Translations under genes and position numbers: made by a program
Shown here: piece after piece, positions 9,227 to 24,416 of the stretch
Position numbering within the stretch: the first letter of the stretch is position 1
Layout: each line of letters begins with the position of its first letter
The notes under the pieces: model-generated
Seen by the model: only the letters and a program-made list of their open reading frames with translations
The model's database searches: none
Told to the model about the DNA's origin: nothing
Assembly: GCA_965221955.1 (NCBI GenBank)
Contig: CBDCTA010000029.1
Location: forward strand, 416,001 to 480,000
Origin: Gammaproteobacteria bacterium
GTDB lineage: Bacteria > Pseudomonadota > Gammaproteobacteria > UBA4575
Direction: 5' to 3'
DNA length: 64,000 nucleotides

Positions 9227-10306
9227 TTATTTAAAAGCTAATAATTCATTCCATGTAAAAATTTGATTTTTTAAACTCCAGTTAATTTGGTATTCCTCGC
9301 GAGACTTTAAACATCCTTTTTGTAATTTATTATATAGCTTTGTATCTGTACATAATCGTATCATTTCATCTGCTAGCGCATCACTATTATAAGGCGGAAT
9401 CAGTAATGCGTTATATTCATGAATAAAAATACCAGGAATATCGCAAACATTAGTTAATATAGAGGGGACTCCACAATGCATTGCCTCAATAGCTGCTGCC
9501 GGCAAAGCTTCTATTTCTGATGCTAATATGAAGATGTGAGAAGTATTCAGGAGCGTATTAATATCATTTCTAAATCCTAAAAATTTTATATTTCTATTTA
9601 GATTTAGTGAGTTACTTAATTTTTCTAACTCAGGCTTAATAGGGCCATCACCAACTATTGCAAATAATATATTTGGATATCTTTTTTTTACTTTATGGGT
9701 TGCATGAATTATTAAATCTATGTTTTTGCGCTTGATAATTTGACCTATATAAATGAAGTCCCATTCGTAAAATTTCGGTTTATTATCAATTCTAAATAGC
9801 GCAGGGTCATGATAATTTTTTAATTCGATTAGTTTTTTATTTGGGATATTTTGTTCAAGTAAAATTTCTTTAGATTTTGGGCCCATAAAGGCAATCATAT
9901 TTGAATTTTTTATAGACCATTTTATTGGAAATGAATAAATAAATTTATCAAGGTAGCTATGAATGTCTTTTCCTATTGGACAGACTATACAATGAGTGCT
10001 GGTAAGTTTTCCCGCAATTACAGCAGAAATGCCATGTGCTATTAATTGAATACCTATAATGGCATCAATATTGCGAGATCTTGATACTTTTAAAAGTGTT
10101 AAAAGTCTCCAAATTTCGAATAATATAGTTATTTTTTTTATGCCTACTGGAGGTGATATATTAATAATTTTATCTGTGTATTTGAGCTTGTTTTTTCTAA
10201 CCAAAATTATATTTTCAATGAGGTCATTTTCAACTAACCCAACTATTTTGGTCTGTAGCTTGTAATCACTTAGACCTGCAGTAATTAGAATGGTTTTGCT
10301 ATTCAC
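9227..10306 (-). CDS. Glycosyltransferase family 4 (GT-B); likely GTG start at 10306 (ORF is open to 10369)
   Basis: IGQIIKRKNID, IVGDGP, FLGFRND, EALPAAAIEAMHCGVPSI (ExxxxxxxE motif). Confidence 0.88.
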   Translation of the reverse strand: MNSKTILITAGLSDYKLQTKIVGLVENDLIENIILVRKNKLKYTDKIINISPPVGIKKITILFEIWRLLTLLKVSRSRNIDAIIGIQLIAHGISAVIAGKLTSTHCIVCPIGKDIHSYLDKFIYSFPIKWSIKNSNMIAFMGPKSKEILLEQNIPNKKLIELKNYHDPALFRIDNKPKFYEWDFIYIGQIIKRKNIDLIIHATHKVKKRYPNILFAIVGDGPIKPELEKLSNSLNLNRNIKFLGFRNDINTLLNTSHIFILASEIEALPAAAIEAMHCGVPSILTNVCDIPGIFIHEYNALLIPPYNSDALADEMIRLCTDTKLYNKLQKGCLKSREEYQINWSLKNQIFTWNELLAFK

Positions 10307-10475
10307 GTGCTGATTTAATGGCTGTAACGAAATTTGCCACGAATCTAACCATGTATAAAATCTTTGCACTAATTTTATTGACGATTGGATCTATCTTGAG
10401 GGCAGGTGCATTCAGGCCTTCTAGCAAATCAACAGGCGTTTCAATAAAAAGACTTGATAAAGGAGTGACACTCAT
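10299..10475 (-). pseudogene. Decayed internal fragment of a neuB/pseI-type nonulosonate synthase gene
   Basis: Own translation: MSVTPLSSLFIETPVDLLEGLNAPALKIDP...TAIKSARE aligns with PseI in this window (LIAFSSPFDESAVEFLENQDVPCYKIAS...DAVECARD). Confidence 0.6.
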
Positions 10476-10595
10476 TTTTCTTAAATAAGTTTGGCGATTG
10501 AAAACATATATCTTTCAAGGCCTTCACTAACATAGGAGTGTTATTAATAATTATTAGCTCTAAATAGTTAAATATTAAACTAATCTATTTAAATT

Positions 10596-11873
10596 TTATT
10601 TATTGTTTTGATGGACGCAACTCATTTTCATGCCATATTTGCCAATACAATAAAAAATGAAAAACTTAAGAAATAAAGCAGCAGATAATATAATATGGAT
10701 ATGCAGTGTATTGCGGCCATAAAAATATATTAAAACAGACAAAACAGATAACAATGTAAGTACTGATATCATAGAAAAAAGACGCAACTTCAAGTCAAAT
10801 GAGGTATGTAAAGCTTGATAAAAGCCCAAAAAGAGTGATGCGCACTGACTAAATCCAATAATAATCATATATAACATCAGACCAGAATAGGAATCAGGTA
10901 GAATATATTCTGTTATATATGCGTAAACAATGGTTAGAATGAGAATAGCTAACCCATACATTCTTAAACTTCTAGACGCTTCTGTTATTTTCTTTCGTAA
11001 TTCAAAATGATCACCGTTTGCTAACAATTTTAAAACTACAGGTGTGTTTTGAGCGATTATCGCAGATCGGGCTGCTTGAAAGGGCACAATCACTTTAAGT
11101 GAAATTGCTAACACCGCTGCTTCTTTTAGTGCTCCCATGCCGCGTAAAAATGGAATTATCCCGCTATGAAATAAAGACACAAGTAAAGTCAAAATTACGT
11201 AGGATAAATGATCATAATGTGTACTAATTACATCACGCGCTTTAATCTCTGCTGCTTCAAATTGAAATTTTTTGCTATTAATTCCTTTAAACTCTAATTG
11301 GATTAGGATAAACGATAATGTGCTAGACAGAATTAGTGCCATGGTGACAAATATTAAAACAATATTAAGATTTAGTGGGAAGATTGCATAGAGAATAATT
11401 GTAGTTAAATGTGGTAAAACACCTCCTACTAAAATCGACCATCTCTGAATCTCAATACTTTTTAGAACTGTTTCTCCAAACCGTAGTAACGACGTCAACA
11501 ATGAGATTACTATCACGAATATGATTTCGTTATTCAGTAAGTTTGTAAAGCTTAAAAGTATGCCCAAAGCAAGCATGAAAACGCTTGAAAATAGTACTAT
11601 TCTTGTATAGTGCCATATCAAGAATTTCTTTTGCCCCTTACTTTGTAAACGAGGGACATTCCGCATACTAAGGCCAGAGCATCCTAGCCCTAAAATAACA
11701 GCTATAATGGAAGCCAGTGCGAGTACAGAAGCATAAATTCCAAACTGACTAACACTTAATTTGTTCGCAAGAATAATTATATTCAAGTACGCTAGCAATA
11801 TGCCCAATATGCGAAGCGCGAATATCTGAAATCCTAAATCAAAATGACTTAGTATTTGTTTAGAAAAAATCAC
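10596..11873 (-). CDS. Wzx-type oligosaccharide flippase (MOP superfamily)
   Basis: About 12 hydrophobic segments; N-terminal LANKLSVSQFGIY..LGLG pattern typical of Wzx; lies in a glycan cluster. Confidence 0.8.
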   Translation of the reverse strand: MIFSKQILSHFDLGFQIFALRILGILLAYLNIIILANKLSVSQFGIYASVLALASIIAVILGLGCSGLSMRNVPRLQSKGQKKFLIWHYTRIVLFSSVFMLALGILLSFTNLLNNEIIFVIVISLLTSLLRFGETVLKSIEIQRWSILVGGVLPHLTTIILYAIFPLNLNIVLIFVTMALILSSTLSFILIQLEFKGINSKKFQFEAAEIKARDVISTHYDHLSYVILTLLVSLFHSGIIPFLRGMGALKEAAVLAISLKVIVPFQAARSAIIAQNTPVVLKLLANGDHFELRKKITEASRSLRMYGLAILILTIVYAYITEYILPDSYSGLMLYMIIIGFSQCASLFLGFYQALHTSFDLKLRLFSMISVLTLLSVLSVLIYFYGRNTLHIHIILSAALFLKFFIFYCIGKYGMKMSCVHQNNK

Positions 11874-23886: not shown

Positions 23887-23892
23887 TTAGGT

Positions 23893-23928
23893 AAAAAAAA
23901 ACGCCCTACGATATCGCAGGGCGTTTTT
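23893..23928 (-). terminator. Intrinsic terminator after pilA
   Basis: AAAAAAAAACGCCCT-ACGATATCGC-AGGGCGTTTTT stem-loop with a U-tract on the minus strand. Confidence 0.85.
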
Positions 23929-23960
23929 CATATAAAATATAGTACAGTTAAACTATACTT

Positions 23961-24416
23961 TTATGTTCTGCAGTCTGCAGGTAAGTACTTGTTAGGAATT
24001 GCTGTGCCGCCTGAAGGTCGACAATCCCAGTCCATTGCTGCACCAGTTTCGGTACCAAGCAACTCTAGTTCTTGGTTGTTAGCAGTTGTGCCGCCCAAAT
24101 CCTTAATTGTGACACGTATAGTAGCTGTTGCAGGTGGTCCAGCAGTAGTAGCTTGTAAAACAACTGAATTTACATATTTAGTGTCAACGTCAGCTGAGAA
24201 ACCAGCTTCGGCTTCGTCATTCGGCATAACACCATTTGACATGAAAAATTCAGATACTGAAGTTTTCGCAGGGCTAGCAGCTAAAACAGCTTCAGATACT
24301 TTTGCACGAATAGTATAGTCTTGATATGCAGGGATCGCGATCGCTGCAAGAATACCAATGATCGCAACTACTATCATGAGTTCGATTAAGGTAAAACCTT
24401 GTTGTGTTTTTTTCAT
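23961..24416 (-). CDS. pilA: Type IVa major pilin
   Basis: Leader [35 protein letters not shown]-terminal disulfide loop WDC...ADCRT. Confidence 0.97.

Follow-up and report, generated by a model that had tools for sequence, protein, structure and literature searches.

A putative pilin O-glycosylation cassette of the TfpW type carrying pseudaminic acid genes between pilA and pilB of a gammaproteobacterium

The genes encoding the type IVa major pilin (pilA) and the pilus extension ATPase (pilB) enclose a group of twelve further genes in a gammaproteobacterium of the UBA4575 lineage (GCA_965221955.1), which we examine here as a putative pilin glycosylation island. The window analysed is the whole stretch of 64,000 nucleotides (nt) from contig CBDCTA010000029.1 (positions 416,001 to 480,000 of the forward strand) and belongs to a genome of 2.69 Mb that is 96.6% complete with 4.3% contamination. 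On the minus strand of the window the order is pilS, pilR, pilA, the twelve genes, pilB and pilC (Table 1). A preliminary description of this DNA had listed twelve intact, co-oriented genes after pilA. All of them are present: the thirteen open reading frames (ORFs) of the island, pilA included, were recovered at the same coordinates, intact, on the minus strand and tightly packed. Intergenic gaps range from -4 to 94 nt, with the exception of 226 nt before the GT4 gene. The G+C content is 0.28-0.34 at both ends of the island and 0.37-0.41 in its flanks. A gap of 94 nt together with a change in G+C content separates the DUF354 gene from pseB. Neither promoter-like sites (58 versus 73.9 +/- 9.3 in shuffles) nor terminator-like sites (12 versus 8.5 +/- 3.1) are enriched. 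The window shows no sign of an integrative element, as it contains no tRNA and flanking repeats do not exceed 28 nt.

Table 1. Features of the pilA-pilB island and its flanks; positions refer to the window. CMP, cytidine monophosphate; Pse, pseudaminic acid; TPR, tetratricopeptide repeat.
Feature	Position	Strand	Evidence
pilA, type IVa major pilin, 151 amino acids, presumed acceptor	23961..24416	-	Pfam Pilin 4.1e-19, N_methyl 7.9e-11
TfpW-like GT-C glycosyltransferase with C-terminal TPR domain, 650 amino acids	21934..23886	-	predicted fold
GT2 polyprenyl-phosphate sugar synthase (DPM1/ArnC/GtrB kind), proposed initiating enzyme	21074..21937	-	Glycos_transf_2 2.6e-32
DUF354 protein, soluble candidate GT-B-like transferase or epimerase	20035..21063	-	DUF354 1.3e-19, weak Epimerase_2
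CMP-Pse pathway block	13374..19940	-	NCBIfam scores
pseB	18942-19940	-	PseB 535.7 bits, cut-off 407.75
pseC	17779-18942	-	PseC 566.1 bits, cut-off 423.5
NeuB-like, second NeuB-family gene	16708-17769	-	below NeuB and PseI cut-offs
pseF	16013-16702	-	PseF 190.6 bits, below cut-off 205.7
pseG-pseH fusion	14445-16010	-	PseG 318.2 bits, cut-off 153.55; PseH 46.4 bits, below cut-off 93.1
pseI	13374-14441	-	PseI 476 bits, cut-off 340.25
GT-B protein with HP motif, candidate Pse transferase, 471 amino acids	11870..13285	-	TIGR04396 and BFO_1060, below cut-off
Wzx-like membrane protein, flippase candidate	10596..11873	-	Polysacc_synt 9.4e-4, below cut-off
GT4 glycosyltransferase	9227..10369	-	Glycos_transf_1 1.3e-37
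pilB, pilus extension ATPase, frame broken in assembly	6990..8722	-	14 extra bases at 13 sites
pilC, conserved right flank	5760..6986	-	T2SSF 8.5e-71
pilR, conserved left flank	24713-26074	-	Sigma54_activat, Response_reg
pilS, conserved left flank	26071-27711	-	6TM_PilS, HisKA

PilA contains 24 Ser/Thr residues and a C-terminal Cys pair. The gene that starts 74 nt after pilA encodes a protein of 650 amino acids, which belongs to no Pfam or NCBIfam family, gives a weak TPR-like match alone and does not match Wzy_C at E <= 0.01. Searching the PDB by sequence revealed no relative of this protein (best E 0.12). AlphaFold2 produced a confident model from 60 aligned homologues, with a predicted local distance difference test score (pLDDT) of 93.5 and a predicted template modelling score (pTM) of 0.92. 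Foldseek found no PDB match to this model at E <= 0.001, TPR proteins filling the list. Alignment of the model by VIA-align matched residues 1-440 to GT-C enzymes, namely Pmt1-Pmt2 (Z 17.4, 337 residues aligned, root mean square deviation 4.8), AglB (Z 17.3), Pmt4 (Z 16.4), STT3 (Z 15.3), ArnT (Z 15.2) and PglB (Z 14.5), and residues 291-643 to the TPR superhelix of OGT (Z 12.6); residues 410-650 of the model form all-helical repeats. A DDX motif, FHFDDYPNI, lies at residues 30-38, in which D34 is invariant and D35 at least 90% conserved among 60 aligned sequences. The family is large, with 28,973 cluster representatives at E <= 0.001. As to whether this protein is a GT-C enzyme or a Wzy_C ligase, a point raised by the preliminary description, the predicted structure is that of a GT-C fold with a TPR tail and not of a Wzy_C ligase.

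The second gene after pilA encodes a GT2 protein, which had been described as DPM1-like. This assignment stands by homology and by two hydrophobic helices at the C-terminus (residues 210-228 and 255-273). Sequence relatives in the PDB are the dolichol-phosphate mannose synthase (DPMS) of Pyrococcus (5mlz, 2.6e-18), ArnC (2.5e-10) and GtrB (1.2e-7, aligned over residues 5-275). All three of these solved relatives load a sugar onto a polyprenyl monophosphate, and by sequence the island GT2 belongs with these polyprenyl-phosphate sugar synthases. Among NCBIfam models AglJ matches best (5.3e-37), yet does not reach its cut-off.

Concerning the Pse genes, four of the six pathway steps (PseB, PseC, PseG and PseI) score above their NCBIfam equivalog cut-offs. 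By tblastn, no second copy of PseB, PseF, PseG, PseH or PseI was found anywhere in the genome. The additional NeuB-like protein is 88-89% conserved in two relatives of the same family, G015 and G020, and has no SAF domain match; a similar NeuB-family gene stands beside guanosine diphosphate-heptose genes in the cassette of a Burkholderiales metagenome-assembled genome (MAG; L018:12589-13350).

The 471 amino acid GT-B protein encoded after pseI carries an HP motif, RLHPGEP, which is invariant in six sequences; five relatives of the protein were found. An alternative start at 13258 is possible and would give 462 amino acids. The NCBIfam model of BFO_1060 covers residues 16-366. The AlphaFold2 model is of moderate quality (pLDDT 67.7) and shows a generic GT-B fold, aligning with an epimerase (Z 14.0), the 3-deoxy-D-manno-octulosonate transferase WaaA (Z 13.1), TagF (Z 11.3) and a polysialyltransferase (Z 9.5). 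An Atlas search returned unnamed clusters only; in the nearest named clusters 19% of members have Glyphos_transf and 18% polysialyltransferase, which are leads only. BFO_1060 is one of the nonulosonate transferases of Tannerella forsythia, together with Tanf_01245 and TFUB4_00887 (PMC5420450). These are described as soluble GT-B/TagB-like enzymes with an HP motif, capping a protein O-glycan with Pse or legionaminic acid (Leg) (PMC5420450), and the island protein may be of this kind. The HP motif, the match to BFO_1060 below the cut-off and the position between pseI and wzx make this protein a candidate Pse transferase. Its gene overlaps the wzx-like gene by 4 nt. The Wzx-like protein has about 12 predicted hydrophobic helices and a short N-terminal match to the Wzx of another cassette; its orthologue in G020 scores 5.9e-6 with Polysacc_synt. 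For the DUF354 protein no solved relative was found by sequence.

The GT-C gene is present in 18 of 56 genomes of the same family, the source genome included. Every one of the fifteen family genomes with enough flanking DNA holds GT-C, GT2, a variable cassette and then pilB-pilC. Two of these fifteen relatives carry a Pse cassette like the source genome. G015 has the same twelve genes in the same order; in comparison with it, GT-C is the most diverged island protein (62% identity, the others 73-89%), and PilA is 82% identical. In G020 the Pse block, the GT-B gene and wzx are kept, the GT4 gene has moved and an AsnB-like gene is added. The remaining 13 relatives have other cassettes, that of G037 consisting of GT-C, GT2 and DUF354 only, and the DUF354 gene adjoins GT2 in six of the fifteen. 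No priming enzyme was detected in the cassettes of the 15 relatives by the panel used. The island had been described as inserted between pilA and pilB. It is not a one-off insertion, as all relatives examined have a cassette at this place. Given the conserved flanks and the variable cassettes of these relatives, the slot behaves like an O-antigen locus whose content is swapped. In the G020 cassette PseG stands alone and is followed by a formyltransferase-like gene in the place of PseH (L109:8361-9053); the AsnB-like gene encodes a putative amidotransferase (L109:15658-17508). The two genes point to a differently N-acylated Pse.

Beyond the family, named genomes were scanned for related loci. 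With the single GT-C protein as query no relative was found, whereas an alignment query succeeded and gave 73 loci in Gamma- and Betaproteobacteria. In 56 of the 64 loci with enough upstream DNA, the GT-C gene is preceded at no more than 900 nt by a co-oriented pilin gene. The pilin link of the island is thus strong by conserved context, both here and in the fifteen family genomes. An orthologous GT2 gene follows GT-C directly in 40 of 59 loci and is found anywhere in the locus in 47 of 59. Across the 73 loci, GT2 is 51-63% identical as compared to 27-44% for GT-C, and GT2 is the most conserved cassette gene. By their neighbourhoods, pilA, GT-C and GT2 form a widespread trio. Downstream of this trio, cassette genes were scanned in the 33 loci in which GT2 is co-oriented and followed by at least 6 kb of DNA; the scan covered 129 of the 197 first ORFs there. 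Additional GT4 or GT2 genes follow in 23 of the 33 loci, a flippase candidate (Wzx, MurJ-like, LPG_synthase_TM or ATP-binding cassette (ABC) type) is present in 13, and methyltransferases, aminotransferases and epimerases are common. An initiating phosphoglycosyl transferase (Bac_transf, Glycos_transf_4) was found in none of the 129 ORFs.

Small LPG_synthase_TM proteins, corresponding to the flippase domain of MprF, recur in cassettes without Wzx. They occur in three family genomes and in six of the 33 distant loci (L112:8832-9782 and L114:15658-16563; also L037, L046, L060, L062, L065 and L073) and are candidate lipid-sugar flippases. In a Zoogloeaceae MAG a phosphoribosyl pyrophosphate synthetase gene stands just past the pilin-linked GT-C and GT2 genes (L064:6681-7766), a possible sign of a pentofuranose donor like that of TfpW.

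The preliminary description had recognised no Wzy_C enzyme, initiating phosphoglycosyl transferase, wzy or Maf in the island, and Pfam and NCBIfam scans bear this out: no island protein matched the Wzy_C, Bac_transf, Glycos_transf_4 or MptE/Maf models at E <= 0.01. The rest of the genome was searched for wbaP/pglC, pglL and flagellin. Three Bac_transf enzymes and two Wzy_C proteins are present, all of them in other polysaccharide loci. One Bac_transf enzyme lies together with one Wzy_C protein in an exosortase (EpsH-type) exopolysaccharide locus (G000:C18:88000-112000; L121, L122), which also holds Poly_export, several GT4/GT2 genes and a deacetylase gene. The other two Bac_transf genes belong to O-antigen-like loci, each of which has its own means of export, Wzx on C24 and an ABC exporter on C6. 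The second Wzy_C protein, likewise encoded on contig C18, stands in a lipopolysaccharide (LPS) core locus between GT2 genes and one gene from HldE, as WaaL would. The sole PF00953 protein of the genome is MraY, beside MurF, and one GtrA-like gene is found far off on C18. In this 96.6% complete genome no Maf and no DprE1-type (ALO) domain were detected, and in view of the latter a D-arabinofuranose donor is unlikely. A flagellar locus with one flagellin gene (fliC) is present.

We read the locus as a pilin O-glycosylation cassette of the TfpW type that carries a Pse module, and assign this reading a probability of about one half. It is likely that PilA is glycosylated in the periplasm by the GT-C/TPR enzyme, whose sugar donor is made by the genes between GT-C and pilB. 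The complete route would have five steps, each of which we infer, and its chance of being right as a whole falls a little short of even. GT2 would place a first sugar onto undecaprenyl phosphate at the cytoplasmic face, and the DUF354 and GT4 proteins, as soluble transferases, would extend the lipid-linked glycan. The HP-motif GT-B enzyme would cap it with Pse from CMP-Pse, the product of PseB, PseC, PseH, PseG, PseI and PseF. The Wzx-like protein would flip the lipid-linked oligosaccharide, and the GT-C enzyme would transfer it in one piece to Ser/Thr of the pilin, which the TPR domain would hold. Since soluble transferases and CMP-Pse are confined to the cytoplasm and the globular part of pilin is periplasmic, the extra sugars should be added to the lipid-linked intermediate before the flip. 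The product of GT2 is the presumed lipid acceptor because GT2 is the sole lipid-sugar starter encoded in the cassettes. A glycan started by GT2 is also favoured by the 129 cassette ORFs without a priming enzyme and by the location of the genome's own priming enzymes in other loci. The conserved GT2 beside variable cassettes fits a constant reducing-end sugar that is recognised by GT-C. The preliminary description had proposed such a route. Of its parts, the GT-C rather than Wzy_C enzyme, the polyprenyl-phosphate kind of GT2 and the pilin context stand, and folds, families and conserved neighbourhoods are established; the monophosphate carrier, Pse in the pilin glycan and its en bloc transfer by GT-C are deduced from gene content.

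The design of the island is closest to TfpW, the pilin D-arabinofuranosyl transferase of Pseudomonas aeruginosa group IV (Pa5196, PA7; bioRxiv 10.1101/2020.04.19.049825). TfpW is described as a protein of 646 amino acids with 11 helices, a DDX motif and a C-terminal periplasmic TPR domain, encoded immediately downstream of pilA (10.1101/2020.04.19.049825). According to this published description, on which the likeness is drawn rather than on a sequence alignment, both enzymes have a length of about 650 amino acids, a DD motif in the first periplasmic loop, a C-terminal TPR part and a gene after pilA, and donor-synthesis genes are sometimes clustered with tfpW, as the putative ones are with the island GT-C. 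Unlike the TfpW system, the island has a DPM1/GtrB-like GT2, with no DprE1-type gene detected in the genome, and it further encodes transferases of the cytoplasm, a Wzx-like protein and the full pathway to Pse.

In its logic the proposed route resembles N-glycosylation in Haloferax volcanii, in which AglJ, AglG, AglI and AglE act on dolichol phosphate, followed by flipping and AglB (PMC3871713). As described for Agl, a GT2 of the DPM1 kind would start the glycan on a polyprenol monophosphate, soluble enzymes would extend it, flipping would involve a Wzx-like protein, as is implicated there, and a GT-C enzyme would transfer it. The Agl system differs in being archaeal, N-linked, dolichol-based and of the AglB/STT3 type, and the likeness is one of logic, not of membership. 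With three-component periplasmic glycosylation (GtrABC; ArnC/ArnT; Ppm1/PMT; streptococcal Pgf; pentofuranose systems, PMC11127046) the island shares a GT2 of the polyprenyl-phosphate sugar synthase kind and a GT-C enzyme, to which its flippase candidate may be added, and the PMT and Pgf systems have a protein acceptor as is proposed here. These systems move one sugar at a time, and the island adds three soluble transferases and a pathway to CMP-Pse, a nucleotide sugar usable only in the cytoplasm. Pilin O-glycosylation by the product of a gene adjoining pilA is also described for TfpO/PilO, PglL, PglS and TfpM (PMC9829042). Enzymes of the TfpO/PglL/TfpM type have a Wzy_C domain and use O-antigen or capsule units linked to undecaprenyl diphosphate (Und-PP) and primed by a phosphoglycosyl transferase, and neither enzyme is encoded in the island.

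The combination of genes had been called undescribed, which holds only in part. The design with a GT-C gene after pilA is known from TfpW, and P. aeruginosa 1244 reportedly has a Pse-containing pilin glycan, made by the Wzy_C route. A Pse cassette joined to GT-C and GT2 was not found in the literature; among open-access papers and preprints we found no description of GT-C/GT2 pilin cassettes with cytoplasmic transferases or Pse. The cassette is real and well supported, and it differs from TfpW by the Pse cassette on a GT-C/GT2 route.

Several observations weigh against reading the island as a TfpW-type cassette with a Pse module, or against single steps of the route. The proline motif of TfpW, YX6PFX7P, is absent in its exact form from the island GT-C; a looser pattern matches at residue 465, inside the TPR part, and nowhere else. 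PseF and the PseH domain fall below their equivalog cut-offs (a GNAT domain is present in PseH), the GT-B protein scores 102.6 bits with TIGR04396 and 85.6 bits with the BFO_1060 family, whose cut-off is 200, and the Wzx-like protein reaches 19.1 bits with Polysacc_synt for a cut-off of 28.2. Among the 33 scanned loci, flippase candidates are not associated with extra transferases (8 of 23 loci with and 5 of 10 without them). We know of no monophosphate-linked oligosaccharide donor in bacteria. A Wzy_C protein is encoded near GT2 in two of the 33 loci, those of two related MAGs, where it has 741 (L063:14351-16576) and 695 amino acids (L065:14625-16712) and follows two to three genes past GT2; one pilin locus can apparently hold both a GT-C and a Wzy_C enzyme. 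The fold search of the GT-C model does not discriminate the type of donor, as Pmt with Z 17.4 ties with AglB with Z 17.3. For GT-C enzymes of the PMT/ArnT kind with a solved structure the donors carry a single sugar, and two to three tandem GT-C copies in 19 of the 73 loci suggest that sugars are added stepwise in the periplasm at some loci.

The last two points also suit an arrangement of two systems in one slot. GT-C and GT2 would then add single sugars to pilin in the manner of Gtr, Arn or PMT, and the Pse genes, GT-B, Wzx and GT4 would build an Und-PP-linked unit for LPS or capsule that is primed elsewhere and ligated by the WaaL-like Wzy_C protein. O-antigens and capsules commonly contain Pse, the genome encodes three Bac_transf enzymes and a WaaL-like protein beside HldE, and DUF354 is set off from pseB by the 94-nt gap with its change in G+C. 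Against such a division, the other polysaccharide loci of the genome come with a priming enzyme and with a Wzx or ABC exporter of their own, and the cassette lies between pilA and pilB in 15 of 15 relatives. Moreover, extra cytoplasmic transferases without a priming enzyme follow GT2 in 23 of the 33 unrelated loci, and G020 keeps the Pse, GT-B and wzx block in the slot even though GT4 has moved. We regard this arrangement as unlikely.

Even if the GT-C enzyme transfers a whole glycan, this glycan could be built on Und-PP by a distant priming enzyme, flipped by the island Wzx and transferred in one piece as by PglB or AglB, and GT2 would supply a periplasmic branch sugar only. AglB, STT3 and PglB are indeed among the best fold matches of the GT-C model, and Haloferax is described as having both kinds of carrier step in one pathway (AglD/AglS; PMC3871713). 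This explanation has to account for the missing priming enzyme both in the 129 cassette ORFs and, by the panel used, in the 15 relatives, and for the conservation of GT2, which is the highest among the cassette genes and would be expected of a constant reducing-end sugar rather than of a side branch. It is distinctly unlikely. Use of Pse on flagellin is less probable still. Pse is a classic flagellin sugar and the genome has one flagellin gene and no Maf detected at 96.6% completeness, so that another transferase would be needed; the soluble GT-B enzyme would then act as Maf or FlmG does and transfer Pse directly to cytoplasmic flagellin, its adjacency to pilA being incidental. However, no glycosylation gene was found among ten ORFs scanned in the fliC cluster and downstream of it, from FlgK to FliE, five ORFs in the 6.8 kb upstream lying outside the scan; GT-B overlaps wzx and the pair stays together in G015 and G020, and the GT-B protein is without the TPR part described for FlmG.

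In contrast to the island genes, pilB is not an intact ORF in the assembly, its frame being broken into at least six fragments, which also weighs against the reading of the island given above. As compared to the 1,719-nt gene of four relatives, pilB is longer by 14 bases, which are spread over 13 sites. Each of these changes is an insertion and can be assigned to a codon boundary, in most cases at six-fold Leu, Arg or Ser codons. If the extra bases are ignored, the protein is 94.2% identical to PilB of G020 without an internal stop, and the ratio of non-synonymous to synonymous substitution rates (dN/dS) is 0.022, as compared to 0.030 for pilC and 0.021 for pilR. In 14 relatives pilB was read whole and encodes an intact protein of 572 amino acids; the locus of G009 ends 31 residues into pilB. 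Contigs from public runs match the pilB flanks almost exactly, and 12 of the 13 insertion sites are without contig cover; no RNA data set is listed for the pilB stretch. Between 7235 and 8306 of the window the cover consists of one 38-base piece (7501-7538) of a 151-base X3 contig, with two letters different and preceded by 109 unmatched letters. At the single covered site a contig 94% identical does not have the extra base.

Quadruplet decoding or programmed +1 frameshifting was considered since eight sites consist of a Leu codon plus one base, and was rejected. Intact genes contain 3,174 cases of in-frame CTT with A as the next base (observed/expected 0.88), the 38 tRNAs include four ordinary tRNA-Leu and no odd anticodon, and pilB is a plain ORF in the relatives. 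Most likely, the insertions are a consensus artefact that merges two synonymous alleles, e.g. two Leu codons; otherwise pilB would be a very unusual pseudogene. If they are an artefact, pili are probably made. Elsewhere in the assembly, PhoH, MiaB and Bac_transf occur on both G000:C24:1-6000 and G000:C6:35000-40000 (L124, L125), MiaB being split on C24 and Bac_transf on C6, and the two contigs run into different O-antigen-like loci. Together with the 4.3% contamination, this duplication suggests that the bin mixes two strains. At the end of another contig (G000:C22:435801-437733; L118), a gene for an FtsX/MacB-like permease has four net +1 insertions, at least two of them in A or T runs, and its frame of 800 codons is intact in G015 and G009. 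That pilB has truly decayed, pili are no longer made and the island is a relic, as its broken frame might suggest, is the least probable explanation of all, for all thirteen island genes are intact, the repaired pilB evolves like pilC, its changes are exclusively insertions at possible codon boundaries and the one site covered by an independent contig is without the extra base.

Pilin glycans are described as shielding pili from phages and from immune recognition (review PMC11841053). Studies of the TfpW type have so far dealt with one sugar in one Pseudomonas lineage. In the present family, which is large, an enzyme of this design precedes sugar cassettes that can be swapped. Tentatively, we propose a second class of bacterial O-oligosaccharyltransferase, in which a TfpW-like GT-C/TPR enzyme would take a whole oligosaccharide, here Pse-capped, from undecaprenyl monophosphate started by a DPM1-like GT2, as a counterpart of haloarchaeal AglJ-AglB, and the pilA-pilB slot would allow pilus glycans to be exchanged in the manner of a serotype locus. 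The Pse cassette lends itself well to tests owing to the distinctive mass signature of Pse. If GT-C moves whole oligosaccharides from a monophosphate carrier, this would be a second route beside Wzy_C enzymes and Und-PP donors, and glycoengineering would gain an enzyme able to put nonulosonate-capped glycans on proteins.

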